This document shows positions 1-14,457 of a DNA stretch of 14,457 nt, in pieces. Within the stretch, counting starts at the first letter, position 1. The number at the start of each line of letters is the position of its first letter. The position numbers were made by a program, and so were the translations under genes. Origin of the DNA: a virus (Duplodnaviria; Heunggongvirae; Uroviricota; Caudoviricetes); the IMG/VR virus record IMGVR_UViG_2537562191_000039, positions 1 to 14,457 of that record; one strand, 5' to 3'. The notes beneath the pieces are model-generated. The model made no database searches and was not told the DNA's origin. It saw only the letters and a program-made list of their open reading frames with translations.

Positions 1-170
1 TGGCCACACTAACGTGGGTGGACTGGTATAACAATCGACGATTGCTGGGAAGGCTGGGCCATACTCCTCCGGCAGAAGCAGAAAAAGCTTATTATGCTTC
101 CATCGGAAACGATGATCTGGCAGCCTGAGTTCACAGATAAAACACTCTCCAGGAAACCCGGGGCGGTTCA
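1..170 (+). mobile_element. Right end of an insertion sequence (transposase 3' end plus terminal repeat); outer boundary approximate
   Basis: Transposase stop at 126-128 is followed by about 40 nt before methyltransferase-coding sequence resumes in another frame. The end is placed provisionally at the CA dinucleotide at 169-170. The left end and any target-site duplication lie outside the window, so the boundary is unverified. Confidence 0.45.
3..128 (+). CDS. DDE transposase/integrase (rve-type, IS3-family-like), C-terminal fragment; 5' end is off-window
   Basis: Frame 3 is open from nt 3 to TGA at 126-128 and translates to ATLTWVDWYNNRRLLGRLGHTPPAEAEKAYYASIGNDDLAA*. The W..WYN..R....G..TP.E.E pattern matches the conserved C-terminal end of rve-type transposase catalytic domains. 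Not in the ORF track because the start is outside the window. Confidence 0.6.
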   Translation, partial: ATLTWVDWYNNRRLLGRLGHTPPAEAEKAYYASIGNDDLAA

Positions 171-181
171 AATCCCCTGAC

Positions 182-3100
182 GTGCTCGTCGGGGGAACAC
201 CATGTTTTACCGCGGGGCATATGGTTCTTTGTAAAAATGGCTATAAACCAATAGAAAATGTTTGCCCTGGTGATTACGTAGTCAGTCATCTCGGGCGGTT
301 ACAACAAGTAAAAAGAGTTGGTTCAAAAATAGCTAATACGGGGTTACTTAATGCCGTTGGGCAGCCTTTAGGTATAAGAACAACCAATGACCATCCCTTC
401 CTGGCTGTTCGGTGGAAAGCCCAAAACACCCGGAAAAATGGCACATATTTTAAGAGAGAGTTGTTGTCTGAACCGGAATGGCGAGCAGCATGTGATATGC
501 CGGGATATCAATGGTGCGCTCTAACTAATTTCAATATTGCATTTCCAGATATTTGTTCTCGGTTCTTGTCTGAAGAACAGGCTATGTATCTTGCGGGCGC
601 TTATGTTGGCGATGGATATATTAGGAGATGGAGAGGTAAATCTAAGAAGGCGGTTGTTTTTGGCATAAATTGCCAGAAATTGAGAAAGTTTCATTGCCGC
701 ATACCAGAAAACATATTTTCCGTGGCAAGCGAAATCCGAGGGAGCATCAAAGTAACCTTGAATGATACGTGTTATGCCAATTGGCTTAATGAACATTTTG
801 GCGAGTTAAGCCATGCTAAGCGTATCCCTGCATGGGTGATGTCGCATCCATTGCGTCATGTGTTTTTACAAGGCTATCTTGATACTGATGGGACACCAAG
901 TGGTAAAGCGGGATTTAGAATTAATAGTGTTAGTTCTGCGCTTGCTTGGGGCGTTGCGGGGTTGTCACAGACTTGTGGTTATGTTTCTTCGGTCAGCTTT
1001 ATTGAAGTTGAGCCCAAAAAAGTGATCGAGGATCGCGTGGTAAATCAACGGAATTATTATCAGGTAACAATCTGCCCGCAGAAATTGTCACGTAAATCAA
1101 GATTGGCTCATGGAATGCTTTTACGAACAGTCAAAGAGTTTAAATCGGTAGGCCTAGATACTGTATACAACATAGAAGTCGAAGGTGATCATTCCTATAT
1201 CCTCAATGGTGCGGTGGTCCATAACTGTCAGGCATTCAGTATCGCGGGATTACGTGGTGGGCTTGATGATGAGCGTGGCGCGCTAACTTTAAAGTATGTG
1301 GAGCTTGCAAATGCAATTGACGACAAACGGGCTGAGTCATTTCTCAAACCAGCCGTTATCGTCTGGGAAAATGTCCCAGGAGTCTTGTCATCGGCAGATA
1401 ACGCCTTCGGATGTTTCCTTGCCGGATTGGCTGGAGAAGATGCGCCATTTGAACCAGGTGATCGACCTGAATCAGGAAAAAGTAACACGTTCTGGCGGTG
1501 GGATGGCAAAACCGGTTGCCATGCTCCAAAGTGGCCGCAGTGTGGTTGTATTTATGGACCGCAGCGAAAAGTGGCCTGGAGAATCCTTGATGCCCAATAC
1601 TTCGGAGTGGCACAACGACGCCGACGCGTGTTTGTTGTCGCAAGTGCTCGAACAGACCTCGATCCCGCAACGGTACTTTTTGAGTTCGAAGGCGTGCGCC
1701 GGAATATTGCGCCGAGCCGAAAAAAGAAGGAAATCGCTTCCGCCATTATTGCAAATGGCGCTGCAATCAGTGGCGAAAGCCTAAATCCATGCCTACACGC
1801 TGACATGCCACCCGGTATGAAATCGACGAAAGCCGTAAACGCTTTCAGGATGGCAGCATTTGGGGAATATATTGACGATGAAACCGCATCGACAGTAAAG
1901 GCAAGAGATTTTAAAGATGCCACTGACCTTGCCGTTTTTAGCAGCACAGGAGCAGGTTTTTGGTCAGAAGGGCATGGTACATTGCGGGCACGTGAGCAAG
2001 AAAGCCATGAGCATCTTGTTACATTGGCTTTTCCTGAGCGTATGAGCGGTACACAACATGCTGCAACTAAGAATACTTCACCATCTCTAATGGCTAAAAA
2101 TCCAACAGCTGTTTGCTATGAAGTAAGAAACGCAGAAGTAGCTGTCCGCCGTCTTACCCCTGTCGAATGTGAAAGGCTGCAAGGTTTTCCTGAGGGGCAT
2201 ACGTTGATCCCGACGGAAAAGCGTAAAAAAGTTTCTTCAGATGAACTGGCATACCTTCGCAATCACTATCCAGATTTAAGCGAAGAAGAGGCCGCGATGC
2301 TTGCAGCTGACGGACCGCGTTACAAAGCGATCGGCAACAGCATGGCAGTTCCTGTTATGCAATGGATAGGGTGTCGCATTCTTGCGACCGTAGCGGATAA
2401 ACAGCAAAAAACAATAAATACCATTACCTACACAAGAAAACTCCGGACTCCGGATGAATATGAACGCCCAATATTCAAATGGGTAGGCGGTAAATTCTCA
2501 GAGTTGCCTACAGTGCTTGAGCATCTACCACACGGCAAGCGGTTAATAGAACCATTCGTTGGTGGCGGTTCCGTATTTACGAATGCAGGATTTCGCCACA
2601 ACCTGCTTAATGATATTAACGGTGACCTGATTAACTTCTATCAGACATTGCAGCGAGAGGGACATTCGCTCGTCACGCTGGCATATAGTTTTTTCAAAAA
2701 TTACAACAACGCTGACGCTTACCTCGAAGTGCGTGAGGCATTTAACAGAGGAAAGTATGACCAACTACATCATGCTGCTGCCTTTTTGTACCTTAATCGG
2801 CACTGTTTTAATGGCGTAACGCGGTACAACCAAAATGGCGAGTTCAACGTAGGGTATGGCAAATACAAAGCGCCCTACTTCCCACATGCAGAGATGGAGG
2901 CATTTTTGGCTGATGACGTACTCAAAAACACTTCCTTTGTATCAGGTGACTTTGCTAGCGTCATTGAGGCGGCTGGTGAAGACGATGTGATTTTTTGTGA
3001 TCCGCCGTATGAACCGCTTCCGGATACAGAGGGATTTACCAGCTATTCAGGAAATAGCTTCCGTTTCGACGAACAGAAACGGCTTGTATCACTGTTGGTG

Positions 3101-3274
3101 GATGCCCACCAGCGCGGCGCTAAGGTAGTGATAACAAATAGTGGTGCTCCAAACATCCGTGAACTATATGAAGGAAACGGGTTTAAAGTACATCATATGG
3201 CAGCCAGACGGTCGGTTTCCTGCAAGGCGTCAACACGTGTAGTTGCTAACGATATAATTGCAATAATGAAGTAA
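182..3274 (+). CDS. Fused DNA methyltransferase: C5-cytosine MTase domain (motifs IV-X only, intein-interrupted) plus Dam-like N6-adenine MTase domain; 5'-truncated by the IS
   Basis: ORF-track protein of 1030 aa. C5-MTase motifs appear in canonical order: motif IV split by the intein (SPDVLVGGTP|CQAFSIAGLRGG), motif VI VIVWENVPGV (ENV at nt 1367-1375), motif VIII YFGVAQRRRRVFVVA, motif IX RRLTPVECERLQGFPEGH, motif X AIGNSMAVPV. The last ~290 aa carry Dam-family motifs: KWVGGK, EPFVGGGSV (nt 2555-2572), FLYLNR, EFNVGYGKYK, FCDPPY (nt 2999-3010). No motifs I-III are present. Reading upstream in frame hits TGA at 113-115 inside the IS end, so the GTG at 182 (no Shine-Dalgarno) is probably not the ancestral start. 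Confidence 0.85.
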   Translation: MLVGGTPCFTAGHMVLCKNGYKPIENVCPGDYVVSHLGRLQQVKRVGSKIANTGLLNAVGQPLGIRTTNDHPFLAVRWKAQNTRKNGTYFKRELLSEPEWRAACDMPGYQWCALTNFNIAFPDICSRFLSEEQAMYLAGAYVGDGYIRRWRGKSKKAVVFGINCQKLRKFHCRIPENIFSVASEIRGSIKVTLNDTCYANWLNEHFGELSHAKRIPAWVMSHPLRHVFLQGYLDTDGTPSGKAGFRINSVSSALAWGVAGLSQTCGYVSSVSFIEVEPKKVIEDRVVNQRNYYQVTICPQKLSRKSRLAHGMLLRTVKEFKSVGLDTVYNIEVEGDHSYILNGAVVHNCQAFSIAGLRGGLDDERGALTLKYVELANAIDDKRAESFLKPAVIVWENVPGVLSSADNAFGCFLAGLAGEDAPFEPGDRPESGKSNTFWRWDGKTGCHAPKWPQCGCIYGPQRKVAWRILDAQYFGVAQRRRRVFVVASARTDLDPATVLFEFEGVRRNIAPSRKKKEIASAIIANGAAISGESLNPCLHADMPPGMKSTKAVNAFRMAAFGEYIDDETASTVKARDFKDATDLAVFSSTGAGFWSEGHGTLRAREQESHEHLVTLAFPERMSGTQHAATKNTSPSLMAKNPTAVCYEVRNAEVAVRRLTPVECERLQGFPEGHTLIPTEKRKKVSSDELAYLRNHYPDLSEEEAAMLAADGPRYKAIGNSMAVPVMQWIGCRILATVADKQQKTINTITYTRKLRTPDEYERPIFKWVGGKFSELPTVLEHLPHGKRLIEPFVGGGSVFTNAGFRHNLLNDINGDLINFYQTLQREGHSLVTLAYSFFKNYNNADAYLEVREAFNRGKYDQLHHAAAFLYLNRHCFNGVTRYNQNGEFNVGYGKYKAPYFPHAEMEAFLADDVLKNTSFVSGDFASVIEAAGEDDVIFCDPPYEPLPDTEGFTSYSGNSFRFDEQKRLVSLLVDAHQRGAKVVITNSGAPNIRELYEGNGFKVHHMAARRSVSCKASTRVVANDIIAIMK
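203..1225 (+). other. Intein (Hint splicing domain with LAGLIDADG homing-endonuclease insert), 341 aa, inserted at the catalytic Cys of the C5-MTase PCQ motif
   Basis: Begins with Cys (TGT 203-205) directly after GGTP, with an N-terminal block CFTAGHMVLCKNGYKPIENVCPGDYVV. Block B is TNDHPF. Two LAGLIDADG-type motifs, LAGAYVGDGY (nt 590-616) and FLQGYLDTDG (nt ~866-892), each retain the Asp. Block F is VYNIEVEGDHSY. Ends ILNGAVVHN (AAC 1223-1225) followed by +1 Cys (TGT 1226-1228). Removing it joins GGTP to CQAFSIAG, restoring GG.PCQ.FS.AG. Confidence 0.8.
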
Positions 3275-3304
3275 AAAACGCCGCAGTAGCGGCGTTTACT
3301 TTTT
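3273..3304. terminator. Bidirectional rho-independent terminator between the convergent MTase and glnS genes
   Basis: Hairpin with stem CGCCGC (3279-3284), loop AGTA, stem GCGGCG (3289-3294). An A-run (3273-3278) lies on one side and a T-rich tract TTTACTTTTT (3295-3304) on the other, giving a U-tract on either strand. Confidence 0.7.
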
Positions 3305-3322
3305 CATGTGGCGAAATACCTA

Positions 3323-4984
3323 TTAACCTAACTTCGCCCAGGTATCACGCAGCCCAACGGTGCGGTTAAATACCGGTTTTTCCGCCGTAGAATGGCGGCT
3401 GTCGAGGCAGAAATAACCTTCACGCTCAAACTGGAATGCTTTACCCGCTACCGCTTCTTTCAGCGACGGTTCAGCAAAGCCCTGTTTGATCACCAGCGAT
3501 TCCGGGTTAATCACCGACAGGAAATCATCCGCAGCACCTGGGTTCGGCACGTTGAACAGACGATCGTACAGGCGGATTTCAACCGGCAGCGCATGTGCCG
3601 CGCTCACCCAGTGAATAACGCCTTTCACTTTACGACCATCTGCCGGATCTTTGCTTAAGGTGTCGGCGTCATAAGTACAGAAGATGGTGGTGATATTGCC
3701 TTCGGCATCTTTCTCCACGCGTTCAGCCTTAATGACGTAAGCATTACGCAGACGCACTTCTTTACCCAGCACCAGACGTTTGTACTGCTTGTTAGCTTCT
3801 TCGCGGAAATCGGCGCGGTCGATCCAAATCTCACCGCTAAACGGCACCTGACGGCTACCCATTTCCGGTTTGTTTGGATGGTTCGGCATGGTGACCATTT
3901 CGCCTTCGCCCTGGTAGTTTTCGATAACCAGTTTCACCGGATCGATAACCGCCATTGCGCGCGGGGCATTTTCGTTGAGATCTTCACGGATGCAGGATTC
4001 CAGCGACGCCATCTCAATGGTGTTGTCCTGCTTGGTCACGCCGATGCGTTTGCAGAACTCACGAATAGAAGCCGCAGTGTAACCACGACGACGCAGACCG
4101 GAAATGGTCGGCATACGCGGGTCATCCCAGCCTTCAACGTGCTTGTCGGTCACCAGCAGGTTCAGCTTACGCTTGGACATCACGGTGTATTCCAGATTCA
4201 GGCGCGAGAATTCGTACTGGCGCGGATGAACAGGAATGGTGATGTTGTCCAGTACCCAGTCATACAGACGACGGTTGTCCTGGAACTCAAGCGTACACAG
4301 AGAGTGCGTAATACCTTCCAGCGCATCGCTGATGCAGTGGGTGAAGTCGTACATCGGGTAGATGCACCACTTGTTGCCAGTCTGGTGGTGTTCAGCAAAC
4401 TTAATACGGTACAGCACCGGGTCGCGCATCACGATAAACGGCGAAGCCATGTCGATTTTCGCACGCAGGCAGGCTTTACCTTCTTCAAAACCACCGGCAC
4501 GCATTTTTTCGAACAGCGCCAGGTTCTCTTCAACGCTGCGGTCGCGGTACGGGCTGTTTTTACCCGGCTGCGTCAGGGTGCCGCGGTATTCGCGGATCTG
4601 TTCCGGCGTCAGTTCGTCAACATACGCCAGGCCTTTGTTGATCAGTTCAACAGCATAGGCATGGAGTTTGTCAAAATAATCGGAGGAGTAACGGATGTTG
4701 CCAGACCAGTGAAAACCTAACCATTCAACGTCGTTTTTAATCGACTCAACGTACTCGATATCTTCTTTTACTGGGTTAGTGTCGTCGAAACGCAGGTTGC
4801 ACTGGCCTTTATAGTCCTGGGCGATCCCGAAGTTCAGGCAGATAGATTTCGCATGACCAATATGCAGATAGCCATTCGGTTCCGGCGGGAAACGGGTATG
4901 TACTGTGGTGTGCTTACCACTGGCCAGATCTTCATCGATGATCTGACGAATAAAGTTAGTCGGGCGGGCTTCTGCCTCACTCAT
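3323..4984 (-). CDS. glnS: Glutamine--tRNA ligase (glutaminyl-tRNA synthetase)
   Basis: 553-aa product begins [48 protein letters not shown], with the class I HIGH motif and a VMSKR (KMSKS-type) motif. Full length and near-identical to E. coli GlnRS as I recall it. The flanks are not the chromosomal nagE/chiP neighbours. Confidence 0.97.
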
Positions 4985-5173
4985 TGTGGATTCCTCAAAG
5001 CGTAAACAACGTATAACAGCGTATGATCTTATAAGCCGAATAGGCTGACAACCACTAGTTGATTAGAAATTGCTTTCTATCGTTATTTCAATAATGAGCT
5101 TTTTCATGAAGCCCACTTTTGCGCATAAGTAAATTAATGATAAATGGCACACAATTGGAACCAAAAAGGATGT

Positions 5174-5211
5174 AAAGGTGCACCAAATTAGTGGTGTATT
5201 GGTACACCTTT
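5174..5211. promoter_or_regulatory. Imperfect palindrome downstream of the ParA/RHH operon; candidate protein-binding site or weak terminator
   Basis: Arms AAAGGTGCACC (5174-5184) and GGTACACCTTT (5201-5211) pair at 10 of 11 positions across a 16-bp spacer. No clean U-tract follows on the minus strand. Confidence 0.35.
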
Positions 5212-5252
5212 GGTTCAAGACTTTTTAAGTTCTAAAACCAACCTGAAAGACT

Positions 5253-5540
5253 TTATTTTGCTTCCTCAGACTCCGCTAACATGAGGATAGCATGGCGGAT
5301 CATATTCAATTTGCTGCGATTATGCTTTTTACTTAACGCATCAAGTACTTGGTACTCGTATTCATTGAAACCAACACGAATAGATTTAAAATCACGTGGA
5401 GCGTCCTTATCGAGCACTTTGTTGTCTTCTGGTTGCTCACCCGGCACCAAATCAGCCTTACTGGCAAAATCCTCAATTCGGCGTTCAAGATCGGGGTCTT
5501 TTACTTCGGGGGCTTTTACCGATTTACGAGGCTTAATCAC
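5253..5540 (-). CDS. ParG-like ribbon-helix-helix centromere-binding partner of ParA
   Basis: 95 aa. C-terminal RHH pattern: strand KSIRVGFNEYEY, helix QVLDALSKK, helix KLNMIRHAILMLAE, after a charged flexible N-terminus. GTG start overlaps the parA stop by 8 nt, with AAGGAG just upstream (translational coupling). Confidence 0.55.
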   Translation of the reverse strand: MIKPRKSVKAPEVKDPDLERRIEDFASKADLVPGEQPEDNKVLDKDAPRDFKSIRVGFNEYEYQVLDALSKKHNRSKLNMIRHAILMLAESEEAK

Positions 5541-6174
5541 TTAATAACTCCTTAACCAACATCTGGATTTCACCTTTAGCTTTCCCGTTGTCCATCTCAA
5601 CAACGCCCTTCCCTTCAGCCATGCAATCGCGGTAAACCTTACGATCACGAATGATGGTTTTCAGCAACTTCAGTTGCGGATATTCAGCTAGGTACTCTTT
5701 GGCCTCATTGGTTTCATTCACAACCGGATTGGATGGGGCCATTGTTAAGACTGCGAACGCCTTAATGCTAGGATTAGGCATCAGGTCCAAAGCCTCTTCA
5801 AACACTTCAACAAAGTGTGCCAGCGTGTCTAAATCTGGTTGAGATGGTCTGAATGGGACCAACACAATATCTGCAGCGGTTATGCCTGTACGCATCTCTT
5901 TGCTATCGCGCCCGGCTGTATCAACAACTACAAATTCATAACGCTTATCCAGATCGAGAAGTGTTTCTCGAATATTACCAAACTTCTGGACACAATGAAT
6001 TACAGGAGAAACCTCTGCCGTGTTACGGTCAGCTGCCCAGCGGGCAGCTGTTCCTTGCTTGTCTGCATCTAGTAACACTACATCCTTATTTGCGCGGGCA
6101 AGCTCCGCACAGATGTTTACGCTTGTGGTTGATTTTCCACAGCCACCTTTTTGGCTGACTACCAATATAATCAT
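5533..6174 (-). CDS. parA: ParA-family partition ATPase (small, type Ib-like)
   Basis: Deviant Walker A near the N-terminus, MIILVVSQKGGCGKSTTSVN, then LLDADKQG and VVVDTAGR motifs typical of ParA/MinD ATPases. Start placed at the internal ATG 6174, which has GAGGAA 5 nt upstream, rather than the ORF-track start at 6204. Confidence 0.85.
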   Translation of the reverse strand: MIILVVSQKGGCGKSTTSVNICAELARANKDVVLLDADKQGTAARWAADRNTAEVSPVIHCVQKFGNIRETLLDLDKRYEFVVVDTAGRDSKEMRTGITAADIVLVPFRPSQPDLDTLAHFVEVFEEALDLMPNPSIKAFAVLTMAPSNPVVNETNEAKEYLAEYPQLKLLKTIIRDRKVYRDCMAEGKGVVEMDNGKAKGEIQMLVKELLSD

Positions 6175-6418
6175 ATCCGTTCCTCGGTGTGATTTTGGTA
6201 TCAAAACGGTTCCAGATAAGAGCCTTTTTGATGCGGGACAGGCTCTATAATGGAGTCATGAATGTTTGGCAAAGTATAACATCAATCAGACCAAATACAC
6301 CTTATATTGCATCCTATTTAACACGAAATCAGCCCTAAATTGGAACCAGATACAAAATTGCACCATAACAGCACCTAACCGGTGCCAGATTAACACTAAT
6401 TAGACACCATTAAGGCAT

Positions 6419-6443
6419 AAAAAAGGCTGCAATTTGCAGCCTT
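6419..6443 (-). terminator. Rho-independent terminator of the parM-parR operon
   Basis: Perfect inverted repeat AAGGCTGCA / TGCAGCCTT (6423-6431 and 6435-6443) about 20 nt past the parR stop. On the minus strand it is followed by a run of six T (complement of the A-run at 6419-6424). Confidence 0.65.
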
Positions 6444-6461
6444 AAACCAGCACATCTTCTG

Positions 6462-6806
6462 TCAATCAGGTAGAGAGTCAGCCAGATTGCGCGCCGACGC
6501 GCTTTTGGCAACAACTTGCTCCTTCACTGGCTCAATGGAGGCAGGGCGCTCCTCAACCGCAGCTGGTAGTTCCAGGAAGGATGCCAGCATTTTTCGGATC
6601 AGCTCCGGGTTATTGTCTTCGGTCAGCAGGGAAGCCAGTAATCCTGGAAGCCTGCTATCGACTTCTCCCAGCGCAAGCCCTGCCAACAATGCGGTTCTTG
6701 CCATATCGCTATGTTTTTTTATCTTCTCGCTCGCCGCCTTTTCATTGGCATAAGCCTCTGGGCGAAGATAAATCATCACTTTCTTACGTTCCTGAGACAT
6801 GGACAT
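6462..6806 (-). CDS. parR: ParR-like centromere-binding adaptor of the type II (ParMRC) partition system
   Basis: 114 aa. N-terminal KKVMIYLRPE and central ARTALLAGLALGEVDSRLPGLLASLLTE resemble plasmid R1 ParR/StbB as I recall it. Sits directly downstream of parM with GAGG 4 nt before its ATG. Confidence 0.75.
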   Translation of the reverse strand: MSMSQERKKVMIYLRPEAYANEKAASEKIKKHSDMARTALLAGLALGEVDSRLPGLLASLLTEDNNPELIRKMLASFLELPAAVEERPASIEPVKEQVVAKSASARNLADSLPD

Positions 6807-6813
6807 TACCTCG

Positions 6814-7770
6814 TTAACCGATTGCTTTCAGGCCATGAACAAGAGCAAGTTGCGGGTCATCCGCCACGAAGAAACGGTCATCACGAATATTAACTTGCTC
6901 GCGAATTGCATCTGCCACCAGCGGTGCGCCACCACCGATCACCATGACATGCGTATATCCTTTAAAGTCGCCAATCACATCAAGAACTCGGGTACGCAGA
7001 CGGTCAATGCTTGCGGCAATGGCCTTTTTCACATCACCAATCGCTGATGGGTCATTGATATTGTCGTTCAGATAATCTTCATCGTGGCGGTTAATAATGA
7101 GCTGATCAACATTGTAATTTGACGTTTCGGTATTGGCCCTTGCAAGTGCTTGCCTTACTTCCCTGGTGACCAGTGATACACCAAGATTCGAATCGCCAAA
7201 AACACGGGAAACTGCCGTCATTTGCCCAGCGACCATTGAAACATCAAGGGTAGTTCCACCCAAATCGACGATAAGAACAGAATGGACAGGGTTCAGATTG
7301 TCGCACAGGCCAATTCCTGCCGGAATAGACTCCGGTCGTACCGTAACTTTCTTAATCGTGAACACATTGCCTTTATTCAGCGTGACGGGGCGCATAAGGC
7401 TGGCTTTCTTGCGCTCGATGTTATCGAGATTGTATTGCGCGTCGTCGTCGTAAAACTCCGCCAGAGGCAGCGTGACCACAATTTCTACTTCCTGCGGCTC
7501 AATACCGCTTGTCAGCAGGGCATGGTGAACAGCCAGGACGTTAAGCGGGCTGTATTGCCATTCCACGTTATTCGTCGGCAGAACATCTGGCGAGATCAAA
7601 TCATACGAATACTTCTCGTCGTCAATGACATAGTTAAACGGCTTGCCAGCACCAAATGTTGCTGACCATCCGCGCTTAAAGCTGTTAGGACTGATGTGAG
7701 TGCGAGTTTCCCCGTCGTGCTCCCACAGCATTTTGATATTGGTTGAACCATCATCGATAAAAATGCGCAT
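6814..7770 (-). CDS. parM: ParM/StbA actin-like plasmid segregation ATPase
   Basis: MRIFIDDGSTNIK (phosphate 1), LIVDLGGTTLDVS (phosphate 2) and HVMVIGGGA (adenosine) motifs; colinear with R1 ParM as recalled over the whole length. Start placed at the internal ATG 7770, which has GGAG 7 nt upstream; the ORF-track start at 7794 is a GTG eight codons further up. Confidence 0.9.
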   Translation of the reverse strand: MRIFIDDGSTNIKMLWEHDGETRTHISPNSFKRGWSATFGAGKPFNYVIDDEKYSYDLISPDVLPTNNVEWQYSPLNVLAVHHALLTSGIEPQEVEIVVTLPLAEFYDDDAQYNLDNIERKKASLMRPVTLNKGNVFTIKKVTVRPESIPAGIGLCDNLNPVHSVLIVDLGGTTLDVSMVAGQMTAVSRVFGDSNLGVSLVTREVRQALARANTETSNYNVDQLIINRHDEDYLNDNINDPSAIGDVKKAIAASIDRLRTRVLDVIGDFKGYTHVMVIGGGAPLVADAIREQVNIRDDRFFVADDPQLALVHGLKAIG

Positions 7771-7796
7771 CTTCTTGCTCCACTTCTGAGACACAT

Positions 7797-7951
7797 TTGA
7801 GAATCAAAATGTAATTTTAAAAGAGAAGCACCCAAAAATCCACACCAAACGAGACAAAAAAGAGCGCTTGTTGAGTTTATTTTGAGAATATCTTAATCAC
7901 CCACTGAATGATGGCCTGATAGTGAGATTTATTTGAGAATGAATTGAGAAT
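7797..7951. repeat. Iteron cluster (parC-like centromere/operator) in the parM upstream region
   Basis: Exact TTGAGAAT copies at 7797-7804, 7882-7889, 7933-7940 and 7944-7951, plus degenerate copies TTGAGTTT (7871-7878) and GTGAGATT (7922-7929). All lie between the divergent parM and PAAR genes. Confidence 0.55.
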
Positions 7952-8036
7952 ACAAAAATATTCCGAAATTTAACTCTCCGTTTGAATGACGAAATAACAA
8001 AGTGATGACAATAGGAGGATAACCAGGAGGTGAAGA

Positions 8037-8321
8037 ATGAGCGCAATAGCCACCAGCGACACCCTTTGTTCTGGTCACGGAGGATTTCCGCCGCGACTGG
8101 TAGCTGAAACCGTTCCCTGGTTCACCGTTAACGGTAAGCCAGTTGTTGTAGATGGTGCCATGTTTCCCAGTCACACTGACGGTAACAGTGCACACCCAGG
8201 GGCAGCTGTATCGACGCGAGTATGGTTTTCGATAGGTGGAAAGGGAGTTGTCTGTGTAGGCGATCCGCTTTCTTGTGGTTCTGTTATCGCCAACGGCGAG
8301 GATATTTTTCAGGTTGCATAA
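8037..8321 (+). CDS. PAAR-domain protein (spike-tip type, as in phage gp5.4 or T6SS PAAR)
   Basis: 94 aa with three PAAR-like segments and conserved metal ligands: DTLCSGHGGFPP, VNGKPVVVDGAM...HTDGNSAHPG, IGGKGVVCVGDPLSCGSVIANG. Strong RBS AGGAGG at 8025-8030, 6 nt before ATG 8037. Confidence 0.7.
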   Translation: MSAIATSDTLCSGHGGFPPRLVAETVPWFTVNGKPVVVDGAMFPSHTDGNSAHPGAAVSTRVWFSIGGKGVVCVGDPLSCGSVIANGEDIFQVA

Positions 8322-9124
8322 TGCTTGATTCAATAGGTGAAGTTAAAGCCTTCAAAATTCTGTCAGATGCCGGTATCTCTACACCAGAATCTATAACCAT
8401 AAGCCGGGCAGCTTCTGTAAAAGCCTCATCACTCGCCAGCGCCATACAGGGAATAGTTCACGCCGATAAAACCTATCCTGATTCTGTTTCGGCCTGGACT
8501 ACTCAATTGCTTGGCTTTTCTGAACAGCTCAATGAGGCCAGCAAAGCGTCTTCATTACTGGCTGATTCTCTTTCCCCATACACCAAGCCATCAGAGCTGT
8601 TACAGATGAAGATTGGCTGGGAATGCTACGCAAAAGGTAACGAGCTGACCCCCATACCTGCTTTCGCCCTTGTTGAGGGAATGGGGAATGTTTCCATTCC
8701 GCAATCTCTAACGGACGCATTGACGGCGCTAAAACTTGATGCTCTGAAAACCGCCATGAACGCCATTAACGCAAAAATTGAAGCTGCCGGAAGTGCTGGT
8801 GGTGATAGCAATGGTGGGCAGGGTGGTACTGGGGGCGCTCAGGCTCCAGTCATTACTCAGGATGAAATTGATGCTTTACGGGAAGCAGTGACAGCCGCCG
8901 AAGTTTTACTCTCCGAAATTAACTCAGCAAGTGAGAGTGTCGTAGCCCTTGCAGGTCGCATTAAAACGTCAACCACTCAGGCAACCAAAGGTTTAGAGAA
9001 CGCTGTCGCCATCACGTTAACTGGTTCTCTACTGGATGATGCAGTAATGAGTCCGGCAATCAGTTTAATCATACCACAAGGCGTTATCGACGCGCTCCAA
9101 ACGAACACCAAAAAGGAACCATAG
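8321..9124 (+). CDS. Hypothetical protein, Ala/Ser/Leu-rich with a central Gly-rich linker; function unknown
   Basis: ATG at 8321 overlaps the PAAR stop (TAATG). 267 aa from MLDSIGEVKAF. Internal low-complexity linker AGSAGGDSNGGQGGTGGAQAP. No transmembrane segment or catalytic motif recognised. The ORF-track N-terminal extension from 8222 overlaps the PAAR gene and is rejected. Confidence 0.55.
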   Translation: MLDSIGEVKAFKILSDAGISTPESITISRAASVKASSLASAIQGIVHADKTYPDSVSAWTTQLLGFSEQLNEASKASSLLADSLSPYTKPSELLQMKIGWECYAKGNELTPIPAFALVEGMGNVSIPQSLTDALTALKLDALKTAMNAINAKIEAAGSAGGDSNGGQGGTGGAQAPVITQDEIDALREAVTAAEVLLSEINSASESVVALAGRIKTSTTQATKGLENAVAITLTGSLLDDAVMSPAISLIIPQGVIDALQTNTKKEP

Positions 9125-9163
9125 CAACACCACTTAGGAACACAAAAGGATATAAATTGGTAC

Positions 9164-9655
9164 ATGTTTAACACCAAAAAAATGAACCTGAAGAGGATGG
9201 TTTTGAAAAAGATAATTTTGATTGTAATTGCGCTTTTAGCCATTTCTGGAATTTACCGAACAACGACGGCAGTTATCGAACACATCAGGTATGTCCGATC
9301 GCTTGAAGACTCAAAATCACAACTGGAAAGCACGAACAACACGCTTTCTACCGCATTACAGTTAAGTGAGAACGCTCGCTCAGCCATGCTGACCGAAAAC
9401 GAAAGAATTAAAGCACTGGAAAAGGAGTACCAGCGCAAAACAGCAGAACTGAATGCCAACCTAATCAAACAACGAGAGGAAAGCCAGAATGAAATCACTC
9501 GCCTTGAAAATGCGTTACGCCGTGCTGGGATTAACGATGTGCGTGTGCCTGATGACGTTATCAGGATGCAGCGGGAACGGGCAAAAGCCATCAACCAGCG
9601 TGCCAGTGAAAATTACCGTAGAAGCCACCAGCAAGCCGCAGGCAAATCTGATTGA
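9164..9655 (+). CDS. Putative i-spanin (Rz-like inner-membrane spanin subunit)
   Basis: 163 aa. N-terminal basic region then a hydrophobic segment IILIVIALLAISGIY (type II membrane anchor), followed by a charged, heptad-rich periplasmic region. The o-spanin gene is embedded in its 3' part in another frame. Confidence 0.6.
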   Translation: MFNTKKMNLKRMVLKKIILIVIALLAISGIYRTTTAVIEHIRYVRSLEDSKSQLESTNNTLSTALQLSENARSAMLTENERIKALEKEYQRKTAELNANLIKQREESQNEITRLENALRRAGINDVRVPDDVIRMQRERAKAINQRASENYRRSHQQAAGKSD

Positions 9656-9821
9656 TTACTCCCCTTGTTTAGTGCCAGAGGACACGCCAGTGCTGTTAAA
9701 CAAGTATCCGACATACGCTGAACAGTTATTCAGCACGATCGACGAATGCAACCAACGAAACGCACTGAATAACCAAAGAAACAGGGAGATTTGGGAAGGG
9801 AAGGGGGATCAAGGCTCCTGA
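9489..9821 (+). CDS. Putative o-spanin (Rz1-like outer-membrane lipoprotein)
   Basis: Signal peptide with lipobox (MKSLALKMRYAVLGLTMCVCLMTLSG|C) and a Pro/Cys-containing mature region. Starts inside the i-spanin gene in a different frame and extends 166 nt past its stop. GAGGA lies 8 nt upstream of ATG 9489; ATG 9510 is an alternative start. Confidence 0.6.
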   Translation: MKSLALKMRYAVLGLTMCVCLMTLSGCSGNGQKPSTSVPVKITVEATSKPQANLIDYSPCLVPEDTPVLLNKYPTYAEQLFSTIDECNQRNALNNQRNREIWEGKGDQGS

Positions 9822-10267
9822 AGCCAGATGTCCTGGCTGTCAGCTTCTTCGAAACCGTGACAGACGTTAAAGTCACTCAAGCGATACTGACGCTGACGGC
9901 CTCTATTTCGCTCATGCCAATGCATGTATCCACCAGCAAATGCCAGCGGACAATCACTATAGTCTATGTAACCAATACCATTCCCCAAACGTGCTTCGCG
10001 CGCACCGGCTTTCCAGGACAGTAGAAAAGAGTCACGATCCGCCAGCATAACAACAAAATCGTCCGGATCTCCGATACAGTGAAGAATACCTGCCTTACAT
10101 AACTGCTTGAGCGCTTTTGACTGGCTCAGGATGTCTTCTCCGTAATACTGAAAACAATCATCAACAACAGCGGGATAGCCTGCCGGGGGATTCAGGCTGG
10201 TTGGTATAGCTGACGCGATCGCCAGCATTAAGCGATATTGTGTTTTTGATGGGTTAACGTGACTCAT
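9809..10267 (-). CDS. Hypothetical protein (152 aa), second gene of a two-gene minus-strand operon
   Basis: ORF-track 152 aa beginning MSHVNPSKTQYRLMLAIASAIP. AAGGGA sits 5 nt upstream of the ATG. No recognisable domain. Its 3' end overlaps the convergent o-spanin gene by 13 nt. Confidence 0.55.
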   Translation of the reverse strand: MSHVNPSKTQYRLMLAIASAIPTSLNPPAGYPAVVDDCFQYYGEDILSQSKALKQLCKAGILHCIGDPDDFVVMLADRDSFLLSWKAGAREARLGNGIGYIDYSDCPLAFAGGYMHWHERNRGRQRQYRLSDFNVCHGFEEADSQDIWLQEP

Positions 10268-10283
10268 TTTGTCCCTTGTTTAC

Positions 10284-10676
10284 TCATTGTCGCCATGCAT
10301 TTTTTAACTCAGGAATATCTGCCATTTCAATTAACTTGCGAAGTCCAGCACTGACTTTCCCATTGCCAACCATAGCAAGCCAATCTCTTACAGCTTTCGG
10401 CATGTAGAGCGTTGCAGTTACCGGCTCTTCAACCCTGGCAGGACATCCGCATACAGGCCATTTAATTGATTCCATAACTTCGGATGCCGGGGTGAGGGCG
10501 GGGACATTGAGTATATCTCTACCAGAAAACTGGATAACGATCCGTTCAGCGAGCGAGAGTATCTCACTTTCGGCAAGAATTGATGCCAACTGCGCCTCAA
10601 CAAGAAAGCGACTTGTTGTGTTCAGAGAGTGGCTCTTAGCGCCATTTTTATACGAAACAAAGATTCGATACGCCAT
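10284..10676 (-). CDS. Hypothetical protein (130 aa) with C-terminal ribbon-helix-helix-like DNA-binding region
   Basis: C-terminus TATLYMPKAVRDWLAMVGNGKVSAGLRKLIEMA fits a strand-helix-loop-helix RHH pattern (Arc/MetJ-like). The N-terminal ~80 aa are unrecognised. First gene of the operon, 16 nt upstream of the 152-aa gene. Confidence 0.55.
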   Translation of the reverse strand: MAYRIFVSYKNGAKSHSLNTTSRFLVEAQLASILAESEILSLAERIVIQFSGRDILNVPALTPASEVMESIKWPVCGCPARVEEPVTATLYMPKAVRDWLAMVGNGKVSAGLRKLIEMADIPELKNAWRQ

Positions 10677-10834
10677 AACTCTAATGATTTGTGTTAGAAA
10701 ACTAAAATTAAATCACATAACAACATGCGTGTTAATAGATTTTATTTTACTAAACCTATTGACTAAATCACAAAGTAGGTATTGTTAGCCCGTCAAAAGA
10801 ACCTTCACGCCGCGCCCGAATTTAGGGCTTAACC

Positions 10835-12532
10835 GTGAATAAAAACATTCAGCCAGCTCGTGATCGCGAGCGCGAGATTATGAATCGGGCGGCAAGCGTC
10901 ATGGCTATGACCGTCGATCCGACCACCGATGCAGCAGGCAACATGATTGCTGACCAGGCAGTAATGATGGAAAACCTGGATAAAGCAATCCAGAAAGTGC
11001 CTATGTTTGAAGGCGTAAATCCAGAGGTCGCTCGTCAGATCACTGGTGGGTGGGCTATGTCTCTGCATGAGTATAAACGTCAACATGGTCATTACCCGGC
11101 AAGTGACATCCTGGCGAACGCACACATGGCTCTTGAACGCCTGATGACTGAATGTGCCAGTGATACCCATGAAGGCACGGGTAAGGCAATGTTTGAGTCT
11201 GTCGCGCAATCAATGCGTAGCTCTGACGGCGTAATGAAAGTTGCTCAATATGCTGCTCTAATTCTGCCTGCCTCTCTGGGCGCTGCTACCAGTGATGCCT
11301 GTACTTTTGTTCCTTGTGATCGTGACGAGTCAAATATTTATGAACTGGTCAACGTAGCAGGCACAAAATTCGGCACCTTCAAACAAGGTGACGAACTGAA
11401 TATGCAGTCAGCTGGTGTTTATTCTCAAATGAAGCGCCTGTATACCCTTTCCACTAAAGGGGATGGCAGCACCAAAACCTTCCAGTTCGACATCCAAAAT
11501 TTTGAGGGACAATCCTGCCCGCTTCGCGCTGGTTATAACAAACTGCTGATCAACCGCAAACCGTCCAAAGTTGACGACGGCGATGGCAACCTTTATTTCA
11601 ATGCTAAAGACAGCAAAGGTAATGCTTTCTCAGCGACTGCCAAAGTTGCCTATGACACTGGTGTCATTGACATTACATTTACCCAGGCTCCGCCAGAAGG
11701 TACTGAAATTGCTGTTCAGGTCGAAATTAACATCGAGCGCAATCCAAGCCTGATTCCTGTGATCAACCAGGCTATGCGTAAGTACGAAGTTCGTCCGTCC
11801 CAGTACGTAATTGCTTCCGAACACACGGTAATGTCCGCATCCGATTTAAGCCGTGAGCACGGCCTTGAATTAGCGGCACTTCAGTTCTCCGCGATGCGTA
11901 ACTGGATCTCCCATGAAACTGACATCATGCGTCTGCGCACCCTGGTATTCCATACCGTTTATGGCCGTGAATTTGATGTGGCTCTGCCGGAAGCTCAAAA
12001 CTATGAGTCCTGGGTCGGCCTCCTGCGTCACGTAGTAAACGCTCTGTCTCAGGAAATGGCAAATCGTACCCTGACAACGGGTATTCGTGGCGGCTTTGCT
12101 GGTGGTGACGCCGCGAACTTCCTGCGCTCTCTGCCTCCACAGCACTTCCAGATCGCACCAGGTTACGTTCAGTCGCCGTATGTACAGTACATCGGCACCC
12201 TGTTTGGCACGATTCGTATTTACGAAGTGCCGCAACCTGTCTGTGAGCAATTCCAGGCACAGGGATATGACTTCGGGCTGGATGACATCTTCTTCTATGG
12301 GCGTGGCGAAGGCATCGGTAAAGCCGGTCTGATTGCTGGTGATGCAGTCCCTGCAATCCCTTACGTGCACGAAACCAATCCGTCTCTCGTTAACCGTACC
12401 ACTCTCTGGGGCAGTGCCATCAACGAAGTACATCCTCGCAACGGTGAAAACTACTTCACTCGCCTGCGTCTGACTCGTGCCAAAGAAGGCGCTATCGACA
12501 TGCTGACAGGCAAGGTTAACGAAAAAAAGTGA
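10835..12532 (+). CDS. Putative major capsid protein (large phage head protein); exact family not established
   Basis: 565-aa ORF with GTG start (an in-frame ATG at 10880 is an alternative). It is followed by an Ig-like decoration-type gene and ends in an A_AAA_AAG slippery heptamer. The C-terminal region loosely recalls T4 gp23-type capsid proteins, but this is from memory only. The gene is certainly real; the product call is tentative. Confidence 0.5.
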   Translation: MNKNIQPARDREREIMNRAASVMAMTVDPTTDAAGNMIADQAVMMENLDKAIQKVPMFEGVNPEVARQITGGWAMSLHEYKRQHGHYPASDILANAHMALERLMTECASDTHEGTGKAMFESVAQSMRSSDGVMKVAQYAALILPASLGAATSDACTFVPCDRDESNIYELVNVAGTKFGTFKQGDELNMQSAGVYSQMKRLYTLSTKGDGSTKTFQFDIQNFEGQSCPLRAGYNKLLINRKPSKVDDGDGNLYFNAKDSKGNAFSATAKVAYDTGVIDITFTQAPPEGTEIAVQVEINIERNPSLIPVINQAMRKYEVRPSQYVIASEHTVMSASDLSREHGLELAALQFSAMRNWISHETDIMRLRTLVFHTVYGREFDVALPEAQNYESWVGLLRHVVNALSQEMANRTLTTGIRGGFAGGDAANFLRSLPPQHFQIAPGYVQSPYVQYIGTLFGTIRIYEVPQPVCEQFQAQGYDFGLDDIFFYGRGEGIGKAGLIAGDAVPAIPYVHETNPSLVNRTTLWGSAINEVHPRNGENYFTRLRLTRAKEGAIDMLTGKVNEKK

Positions 12533-12645
12533 TGGTGGCGAACGTGTCGGTATCACCAACGTCACTTGACGTAGATGAAGGTGAAACTATCGCCGCGAAC
12601 ACTTCAAAGGCACAGAAAAAAACAAAGCAGAAGTAAGGCAAAAAC

Positions 12646-12666
12646 ACGCCCCTGAATAAGGGGCGT
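12646..12666 (+). other. RNA hairpin between the capsid gene and the Ig-like gene (not a canonical terminator)
   Basis: Stem ACGCCCC (12646-12652) / GGGGCGT (12660-12666) with a 7-nt loop. No U-tract follows; it is followed directly by AGGAG (12669-12673) and ATG 12680. Confidence 0.35.
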
Positions 12667-12679
12667 TCAGGAGAAAAGA

Positions 12680-12958
12680 ATGGCAAACATTCAAGTAACT
12701 ATCTCGCCATCTGACGCAACAGACAAATCTTTCACTGTTGAGTCCGATCACCCTGAAATTGTCCAGGTTGATGGCACTACATGTACCGCTCTTAAGGCCG
12801 GGCAGGCAGTGCTGACAATCAAAACAAATGACGGCAATAAAACCGCACAGTGCACAGTCACTGTTAGGGAGGCACCTAAAAGCGTAAGCGCCGTCAGTGT
12901 TGAACCAACTACGAAAGAAGTAACCGTAGGCGACAACTTCACGGTAAGCGAATCCTGA
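12680..12958 (+). CDS. Ig-like (Big_2-type) domain protein, probable head decoration or accessory protein
   Basis: 92 aa. VTISPSDATDKSFTVESDHPEIVQVDGTTCTALKAGQAVLTIKTNDGNKTAQCTVTV fits the bacterial Ig-like group 2 pattern. RBS AGGAG is 6 nt upstream. The C-terminal VSAVSVEPTTKEVTVGDNFTV looks like the start of a second, truncated Ig-like domain. Confidence 0.65.
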   Translation: MANIQVTISPSDATDKSFTVESDHPEIVQVDGTTCTALKAGQAVLTIKTNDGNKTAQCTVTVREAPKSVSAVSVEPTTKEVTVGDNFTVSES

Positions 12959-12962
12959 TCAG

Positions 12963-12989
12963 AGGCTGCCCATTAACCGTGGGTAGCCT
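12963..12989 (+). other. RNA hairpin downstream of the Ig-like gene; possible weak terminator or attenuator
   Basis: 10-bp stem AGGCTGCCCA (12963-12972) / TGGGTAGCCT (12980-12989) with one G-U pair and a 7-nt loop, followed by a pyrimidine-rich rather than clean U tract. Confidence 0.3.
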
Positions 12990-13025
12990 TGCCTCGTTCT
13001 CTCGCTTTAGAGGATAAGAACCAGC

Positions 13026-14457
13026 ATGAATAAGATTAGTTTTTCGGTAGGGCAGGCAGCTGGCGTTGCTGTAATGTCAGTCAATGCTGACGCTACCCTC
13101 ACCAATACCAGCGGTGGCGCTTCCGTCTTTGCTGGGCTTGTAATATCGCGTCGTGGCGCACCGGGTAAGGTACTGAAAGTTGACGATACGACTTATCAAA
13201 GCGTATTAGGTTCACCGATTCACCCTCGCCTGGGCGCGGCATTTGAACCATACCGCCACGTGGAGCGTGCAGTAAAAGGCGGTTCTGGATATGTCGTTCG
13301 AGTTTGCGCTAAAGACATGAAGGTACCGGGTATTTCTGTTTCCGTTGTGGGCAGAGCAAAAGCGGCAAAGGCGAGTAAAGAACTTTCCGTTGAACCAACT
13401 GAAACCACAGTAAATCCAGGTGACACATTAAGCGTTGGTGTTGCTTCAACAGTAACGACTCAATCAGAGGTCTTCACACCAAAAGAGACGCCTCAGATAA
13501 AAGGTGATGAGAAAGCATTATTCTTCATCAAAGATGGTGATGCATCTCAAAATCGCACGTTATCACTAACCCGCGATAATGAAGAAAGCGAACTCTTTAC
13601 GCTGACGCTGAAAGAAAAACAAACTGATGGGTCCATTGAGGTACTGGAAAGCCACCAGGTGTCCTTCAATCCAGAAGGCACTAACGACATGGGCCAACCT
13701 GCATGGATTCCGACACTGCTTGAAAGCCAGTCCACTCGCATTGGTGCCGTGCTGGCAGATGATGCAGAAGCATCTGCTGCTCAACTCATTTTTGAGGATG
13801 TAGCTTTTGAAGGTGGTACTGATGGCGATCTGTCCACAATTAACACTGAAGACTATCTGGAAGCATTAAAGGTTCTCGAAGCTTCAGAGGTTAATTACAC
13901 CGCATTGCTGTCACTGGGTTGTTATGACGCATCCGCCTTAGCCGCAATCAAAAAGCTGGCTGAAGATGTTCGCGTAGACATGTTCTATGACCTGAAGGGC
14001 AACCAGACACCTGAAAACGCTATTTCAGAAGCGAAAAGCCATAGTTTTGGCGGCTCACATCAACCAAGCCGTTACTACTTCCCGCTTTCCTGCCGAGATA
14101 CCTTCACTGGGATGAATGTCGTCTATGGCATTAGTTGCGACGCATTCGTAGCGAAAGCAAAAGGAGTTGCGCTGGTACCGGATGTTGGTGGTTGGCATTA
14201 CGCACCCGCAGGTATATCACGCGCGATTATTGATCGACAGAACATTGCCCGAATTCCAAATATCGGTGCAGTTGATCGTGAAGCGTTCGTTCTTGCGCGC
14301 ATTAATCCAGTTTCAGTTGCTGCTGACGGGTCCGTTTACATTGACGACTCTTTAACAACTTACAGCAAAAACAATTATCTGCGATTCCAGCATGTGTCTT
14401 CCTTGATGAACGCCATCGCCAGAAATTTCTATGACGTAGCTCAGGCGATTAAGCACG
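13026..14457 (+). CDS. Large phage structural protein with an internal Ig-like segment (possibly tail sheath or another major virion protein); 3' end off-window
   Basis: ATG 13026 is preceded by AGAGGA. Frame 0 is open to the window end (at least 477 codons), which is why it is absent from the ORF track. Internal Ig-like stretch KELSVEPTETTVNPGDTLSVGVAS (nt ~13381-13449). The N-terminal VFAGLVISRRGAPGKVLKVDDTTYQSVLG loosely resembles sheath-protein N-termini. Product call is low confidence. Confidence 0.55.
   Translation, partial: MNKISFSVGQAAGVAVMSVNADATLTNTSGGASVFAGLVISRRGAPGKVLKVDDTTYQSVLGSPIHPRLGAAFEPYRHVERAVKGGSGYVVRVCAKDMKVPGISVSVVGRAKAAKASKELSVEPTETTVNPGDTLSVGVASTVTTQSEVFTPKETPQIKGDEKALFFIKDGDASQNRTLSLTRDNEESELFTLTLKEKQTDGSIEVLESHQVSFNPEGTNDMGQPAWIPTLLESQSTRIGAVLADDAEASAAQLIFEDVAFEGGTDGDLSTINTEDYLEALKVLEASEVNYTALLSLGCYDASALAAIKKLAEDVRVDMFYDLKGNQTPENAISEAKSHSFGGSHQPSRYYFPLSCRDTFTGMNVVYGISCDAFVAKAKGVALVPDVGGWHYAPAGISRAIIDRQNIARIPNIGAVDREAFVLARINPVSVAADGSVYIDDSLTTYSKNNYLRFQHVSSLMNAIARNFYDVAQAIKH

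Follow-up and report, generated by a model that had tools for sequence, protein, structure and literature searches.

Capture limits, mosaic alleles and possible role of a glutaminyl-tRNA synthetase gene on a D6-like plasmid prophage

Phage D6 carries a gene for glutaminyl-tRNA synthetase (GlnRS), glnS, which is annotated in the phage record (GenBank MF356679) as orf62, 'glutaminyl-tRNA synthetase, similar to E. coli GlnS'. On one side of it is the DNA methyltransferase gene dmt and on the other are the partition genes; the genes for the major capsid and the sheath follow downstream. PMC6799933 (PLoS One 2019), which credits Gilcrease & Casjens 2018, places glnS in D6-like genomes. The same paper called the gene a moron, suggested a role in fitness or plasmid maintenance by analogy with a plasmid-borne cysS, and reported tRNA genes for P1- and D6-type elements. 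Plasmid pBT1 of Salmonella Typhimurium D23580 encodes such a cysS, which has taken over the essential role (PMC6333337). Here we describe the glnS gene in a stretch of 14,457 nucleotides (nt) from the virus record IMGVR_UViG_2537562191_000039, hereafter called the window, to which all positions refer unless stated otherwise.

Because the D6 annotation and PMC6799933 already describe glnS there, its presence on D6-like elements is known and not a new finding, and no new kind of system is revealed. New here are the exact limits of the captured DNA, the retained Dam-sensitive promoter, the repeated exchange of alleles and a natural lineage without glnS. It is unusual for a temperate phage-plasmid to have an almost identical copy of a host synthetase gene that is essential. 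On balance, we think that the phage-plasmid glnS is a functional extra GlnRS gene that was captured once. An earlier interpretation made from the letters of the window (the sequence-only reading) had offered several explanations, namely a second copy acquired by capture and perhaps serving as decoy or resistance allele, an integration junction, or a chimeric assembly. The captured copy stood, the junction and the chimera did not, the resistance allele found no support in the sequence, and the D6-like identity of glnS had not been recognised.

Element identity and limits of the captured DNA

As judged from sequence comparison, the window belongs to a D6-like plasmid prophage, which is a myovirus related to P1 and kept as a plasmid of ~90 kb. 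The E. coli plasmid pE2863-2, which is circular, measures 92,925 bp and encodes RepB and ParM, is 100% identical to window positions 1226-14457, and phage D6 is 98.4% identical to positions 2444-14457 (12 kb) and collinear with them, including the capsid, sheath, partition and dmt genes; the window itself covers only 14.5 kb. In PLSDB, 146 records matched glnS, about 100 of them Escherichia, Salmonella or Shigella plasmids, mostly of 75-98 kb and with 97-100% identity. The D6 partition segment (window 5080-6300) was found in 94 of 5426 complete E. coli genomes, every time on a plasmid and never on the chromosome. Neither the window nor 49 kb of pE2863-2 yielded any tRNA genes, and therefore no tRNA-Gln stands beside glnS; an Rfam scan of the window gave no family at or above the gathering score. 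Also in PLSDB, a Klebsiella pneumoniae plasmid of 316 kb that is not D6-like (NZ_OP378648.1) has a glnS 86% identical to the window gene, which suggests an independent case of plasmid-borne glnS.

The glnS region has the following features:

3323-4984, minus strand: glnS coding sequence, an intact class I glutaminyl-tRNA synthetase of 553 amino acids and 1662 nt (open reading frame list, Pfam and alignment)
3327-5072, minus strand: DNA homologous to the chromosomal glnS locus (alignment with the K-12 and 21AH006 loci)
5023-5051, minus strand: native glnS sigma-70 promoter, with -35 TTGTCA, a 17-nt spacer and -10 GATCAT (sequence comparison and prediction)
5073-5252, minus strand: D6-specific spacer between orf61 and the captured promoter (alignment)
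3276-3297, both strands: predicted bidirectional intrinsic terminator between the converging dmt and glnS genes, with a 9-bp GC-rich hairpin (6 GC pairs) and a T-run on both strands

The sequence-only reading had seen a full-length, near-E. coli glnS in the context of a mobile element, and this was borne out at the level of the protein. The Pfam profiles PF00749 (catalytic, 6e-130), PF03950 and PF20974 (anticodon-binding, 6.6e-34 and 8.8e-26) are matched over their full length, and the window GlnRS aligns residue by residue and without gaps with the solved E. coli GlnRS (PDB 1o0b), with which residues 113-477 are identical. Compared with K-12, it has the substitutions V97I, Q106K, I112V, S478N, D510E and V552L and lacks the terminal Glu (E554); the identity to the host protein is 98.9% and the six substitutions are conservative. 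When the active site was compared with that of the chromosomal allele, the signature motifs HIGH (residues 41-44) and VMSKR (residues 268-272, KMSKS-type) were intact. Chromosomal glnS, with 96.1-97.3% nt identity to the window gene, was found in 5425 of the 5426 complete E. coli genomes (5428 chromosomal places) and lay between nagE and chiP in the genomes examined, the position that had been named as normal.

Between the window gene and K-12 glnS there were 52 synonymous and 5 non-synonymous differences, with a ratio of non-synonymous to synonymous substitution (dN/dS) of 0.025. The value against D6 glnS was 0.027 and the overall range 0.025-0.05, while chromosomal alleles compared among themselves gave 0.01-0.03. 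The reading frame was intact in all 11 good-quality D6-like glnS copies examined, and the only changes fixed across the D6-like copies compared were V552L and the loss of E554, both at the capture junction. By these measures, the phage-plasmid glnS appears to be under strong purifying selection. The Salmonella plasmid pSa1423-90k, with 30 in-frame stops, was considered as a case of pseudogenised glnS and excluded, because its 159 gap openings in 4.7 kb against the window point to assembly error.

The homology with the chromosomal locus ended upstream at 76-88 nt before the ATG (window ~5060-5072) and downstream at window position 3327. The latter limit falls inside codon 551/552, and the C-terminus has therefore changed from ...WAKVGE (stop) to ...WAKLG (stop). 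In the alignments with K-12 and 21AH006, no nagE or chiP DNA adjoined the window glnS, and the GC content was 50-54% across the gene compared to 42-48% in the flanks. The hexamers of the predicted promoter are identical to those of the chromosomal gene, with three substitutions in the spacer, and the Dam site GATC inside the -10 is conserved. According to a passage of PMC12369378 that cites Plumbridge & Soll 1987, the chromosomal glnS is derepressed by removing the -10 GATC or by deleting dam.

At the other end of the gene, the predicted hairpin agrees with the bidirectional terminator that had been noted beside glnS, and it consists of D6 DNA, not chromosomal DNA. No minus-strand terminator was predicted in the D6-specific spacer at 5073-5252, so read-through from the parA-like operon into glnS is possible. 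The same spacer contains a perfect 6-bp inverted repeat (GGTGTA TTGG TACACC, 5193-5208), which may be an operator or a weak terminator of that operon.

The E. fergusonii plasmid pEF-4 is more diverged, with a backbone that shares 85% identity with the window. Its chromosomal homology has the upstream limit in the same place and likewise stops at the 3' end of glnS. These shared limits argue for a single ancestral capture of the gene. The pEF-4 glnS (3001-4665 of its aligned stretch) encodes 554 amino acids, ends in ...AKVEG and reaches only 95% identity with each of the E. coli alleles examined. Conversion by the chromosomal gene of E. fergusonii may have taken place; one scan of genome contigs returned no E. 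fergusonii glnS locus to compare with the pEF-4 allele.

The host of pE2863-2, strain E2863, also has an intact glnS on its chromosome, where the order is the usual nagE-glnS-chiP and the promoter region is normal, and its chromosomal GlnRS has the same protein accession as that of the K-12-derived strain examined. The chromosomal gene and the pE2863-2 gene differ at 48 of 1650 sites. They are thus two distinct genes and not one chromosomal copy seen twice, and for the same reason the idea that the pE2863-2 allele had been homogenised to that of its own host was rejected. Taken with a chromosomal homology that comprises the gene and 76-88 nt upstream, this comparison indicates that the window glnS is a true second copy, with the host chromosomal copy kept.

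Mosaic alleles and the lineage without glnS

Among themselves, the D6-like glnS alleles share 96.8-99.9% identity, and with E. coli chromosomal alleles they share 96.0-98.1%; the ranges overlap and the D6-like alleles therefore form no tight separate group. A map of the variable sites showed a block structure, with best-split tests giving p = 1e-7 to 5e-10. In pAPEC201603, nt 1-716 of glnS are exactly the K-12 allele, and 28 sites differ from the window gene over nt 1-723; in ptetA, it is nt 835-1574 that are exactly the K-12 allele. The 3' half of the window glnS and the chromosomal allele of strain 21AH006 share 98.9% identity. The 5' 720 nt of the window gene reach at most 96.4% identity to any chromosome among the matches listed (5425 genomes), and matches of at least 99% to this part were found in only 37 records, out of 77 plasmid places. 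D6-like copies from Salmonella hosts stay E. coli-like, with 84-85% identity to Salmonella glnS, and no Salmonella-like tracts were seen in them.

The simplest reading of these patterns is repeated gene conversion between the phage-plasmid glnS and resident E. coli alleles, laid over an older phage-type segment; being ~97% identical, the two copies would be able to exchange tracts. As far as we found, mosaic glnS alleles have not been reported earlier. A mobile element can in this way carry alleles of an essential housekeeping gene between strains, which is relevant to typing schemes and to the assembly and polishing of genomes with two 97%-identical copies.

In two plasmids, pEC361_3 and that of isolate A3176, the genes are arranged in the same way, with orf61-parA-stbB-parM after the Dam methylase, and glnS is absent. 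Only ~135 bp, including a different terminator hairpin, lie between the methylase gene and orf61 (positions in the aligned stretches):

pEC361_3, 3367-3503: gap without glnS
A3176 plasmid, 3363-3499: gap without glnS

The backbones of these two plasmids are 72-83% identical to the window, and they represent a natural empty-site or deletion lineage. About four fifths of the D6-type partition modules in complete E. coli genomes come with a plasmid glnS (77-81 plasmid places compared to 94 modules). To say that 'all D6-like genomes' carry glnS is slightly too strong.

Possible functions of the extra synthetase

An ancestor of the lineage would have captured ~1.75 kb of an Escherichia chromosome, containing glnS with its own promoter and nothing else, and this piece would have been placed between the dmt terminator and the partition operon. 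Transcription would start from the retained Dam-repressed sigma-70 promoter, possibly with a contribution of read-through from the parA-like operon. In lysogens the gene would be expressed from about one extra copy, and more strongly from the many copies present in lytic replication; under-methylated DNA may likewise give higher expression, since Dam represses the promoter. The extra GlnRS would supplement that of the cell, as an auxiliary translation function alongside the reported tRNA genes, and the benefit to the element would probably be one of dosage or translation support.

Several points weigh against this account. The benefit of dosage is a conjecture, and GlnRS excess is known to cause mischarging in certain genetic backgrounds. 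Conversion by the chromosomal gene, which is under selection, could on its own keep the phage-plasmid glnS looking constrained. The gene is dispensable for the life cycle as phage or plasmid, since a D6-like lineage without it exists. Some of the mosaicism may be a polishing artefact in assemblies holding two 97%-identical copies; this is unlikely, because the copies differ about once in 30 nt and those of E2863 stay distinct.

Of the alternatives to a functional extra gene, a neutral passenger survives best, even if we consider it rather unlikely. In this case, glnS would have entered by illegitimate recombination, would give no benefit and would be kept intact mainly by host gene conversion. 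The repeated conversion by chromosomal alleles would agree with this, as would the viability of the lineage without glnS and the lack of family-specific amino-acid changes beyond the junction. However, glnS is intact across backbones diverged by at least 15%, and it is also intact in Salmonella hosts, where conversion cannot be what maintains it, given that the resident gene is only 84-85% identical and no Salmonella-like tracts occur. Moreover, the 5' phage-type segment, despite having at most 96.4% identity to chromosomes among the matches listed, has a dN/dS of 0.03, and capsid-limited phage genomes usually shed a useless stretch of 1.8 kb.

Plasmid addiction through an essential gene would require that the chromosomal glnS is silenced or outcompeted, so that plasmid-free cells grow poorly. 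It has a precedent in cysS on pBT1, it was proposed for D6-like glnS in PMC6799933, and the location of glnS beside partition genes is consistent with it. In E2863, however, the chromosomal gene is intact and has a normal promoter region, and the chromosomal copy is kept in all but one of the 5426 complete E. coli genomes; as the phage and chromosomal promoters are the same, no mechanism for selective silencing is evident. D6-like elements also already have toxin-antitoxin systems, for example HigB/HigA, and the lineage without glnS persists. We therefore regard addiction as unlikely, and as a somewhat poorer explanation than the passenger.

It is highly improbable that glnS acts as a counter-measure against a toxin or defence that hits GlnRS or tRNA-Gln, for which the acceptor-stem tRNase CdiA-CT(EC869) would be a candidate. 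GlnRS binds the acceptor end of tRNA, and P1- and D6-type elements carry a tRNA-Asn gene; the link is nevertheless circumstantial, an extra synthetase cannot repair a cleaved tRNA, and a literature search found no GlnRS-targeting toxin. There is, at most, a slim chance that GlnRS keeps tRNA-Gln charged or shielded under an acceptor-end attack on tRNA-Gln and tRNA-Asn, together with the tRNA-Asn of the element, or that the Dam-sensitive promoter gives a burst of GlnRS from unmethylated incoming or replicating DNA. For the decoy or resistance allele of the sequence-only reading, the sequence offered no support: the GlnRS is essentially the host enzyme and its substitutions can be lost, with K-12-identical tracts in some copies and no change fixed beyond the junction, and it is therefore not a resistant variant. 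A second synthetase resistant to an inhibitor or toxin (mupA-type) was rejected as a candidate, as there is no diverged protein and only the junction changes V552L and E554 loss are fixed.

An integration junction or a chromosome/plasmid assembly chimera, for which only the high identity of the window gene to chromosomal glnS would speak, can practically be dismissed: the homology stops 76-88 nt upstream and inside the last codons without nagE or chiP following, the same gene order and identical junctions recur in the phage D6 genome and ~100 independently assembled plasmids, the D6 partition module is never chromosomal and no D6-like prophage is integrated at chromosomal glnS in the 5426 complete E. 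coli genomes, and the two E2863 copies are separate and distinct.

Flanking genes and comparison with known systems

The span 3273-5252, to which the sequence-only reading had drawn attention, reaches from the stop codon of dmt (3274) almost to that of the minus-strand orf61 (5253). Its surroundings were as described there, with a phage-type methyltransferase gene disrupted by an insertion sequence (IS) on one side and partition genes on the other:

1 to ~173, unstranded: end of an IS3-family element (IS629/IS1203, 99.4%), which cuts off the 5' end of dmt
168-3274, plus strand: dmt, a fused C5-cytosine and N6-adenine (Dam) DNA methyltransferase of P1/D6 type, without its first 65 codons and with an intein inside
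203-1225, plus strand: intein in dmt, 341 amino acids, with a LAGLIDADG homing endonuclease (motifs at nt 590 and 866; Hint_2 and LAGLIDADG_3 domains)
5253-5540, minus strand: orf61 of D6, a hypothetical protein, directly upstream of glnS
5533-6174, minus strand: ParA-like P-loop ATPase (D6 orf60)
6462-6800, minus strand: StbB/ParR-like gene
6814-7770, minus strand: ParM/StbA actin-like segregation gene

The IS629/IS1203 end, which abuts the truncated dmt, has cost this gene its first 65 codons and with them the start of the C5-methylase domain, so that the domain is probably dead in the window. The exact junction between the IS and dmt was present in no record of the E. coli collection. The dmt gene, too, is mosaic: 99.4% identity to P1-like plasmids of O111:H8 and related strains extends over positions 168-2367, and D6-type identity starts at 2444. 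Window 168-3157 also matches dmt of the phages RCS47 and Ro157c2YLVW. The intein sits in the catalytic Pro-Cys motif of the C5-cytosine methylase domain, between GGTP and CFTAGH at its start and between VVHN and CQAFS at its end, and has Cys 1, the terminal His-Asn and Cys +1. It is precisely absent from the Dmt of pE2863-2, and the same intein is found in the full-length Dmt (1095 amino acids) of the P1-like plasmid NZ_CP027590.1; a literature search found no description of a Dmt intein. Elsewhere in the window, a homologue of P1 upfC (8037-8321, plus strand) is annotated in RefSeq as a PAAR-domain protein.

The closest relatives of the window glnS are those of D6 and of D6-like plasmid prophages such as pYU39_89, in which the gene has the same position (dmt, glnS, orf61-parA-stbB-stbA) and the same capture junctions. 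The D6 and window genes are 98.0% identical at the nt level and both proteins end in ...WAKLG. They differ in that the window gene is another mosaic allele, with a 3' half like the chromosomal allele of 21AH006, whereas that of D6 is like the O157/K-12 type, and in that the window dmt has an intein and the IS629 cut while the D6 dmt has neither. With the chromosomal E. coli glnS (K-12 b0680; structures 1o0b, 1gts and 1qtq), the window copy shares the promoter hexamers, the GATC site and the Shine-Dalgarno sequence. Unlike the chromosomal gene, it stands outside the nagE-chiP context and without chromosomal flanks, has a phage terminator, and ends in LG instead of VGE.

The cysS of pBT1 is likewise an extrachromosomal second copy of a gene for an essential aminoacyl-tRNA synthetase. 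It is only 79% identical to the host gene at the nt level, whereas D6-like glnS is ~97% identical and the chromosomal copy in E2863 is intact. A host-type translation component on a virus, which presumably sustains translation, is also found among other phage translation genes, namely the tRNA genes of P1- and D6-type elements and the synthetases of large phages and giant viruses. In contrast to these synthetases, the glnS described here is a very recent, near-identical host copy in a temperate phage-plasmid and not an old diverged lineage.

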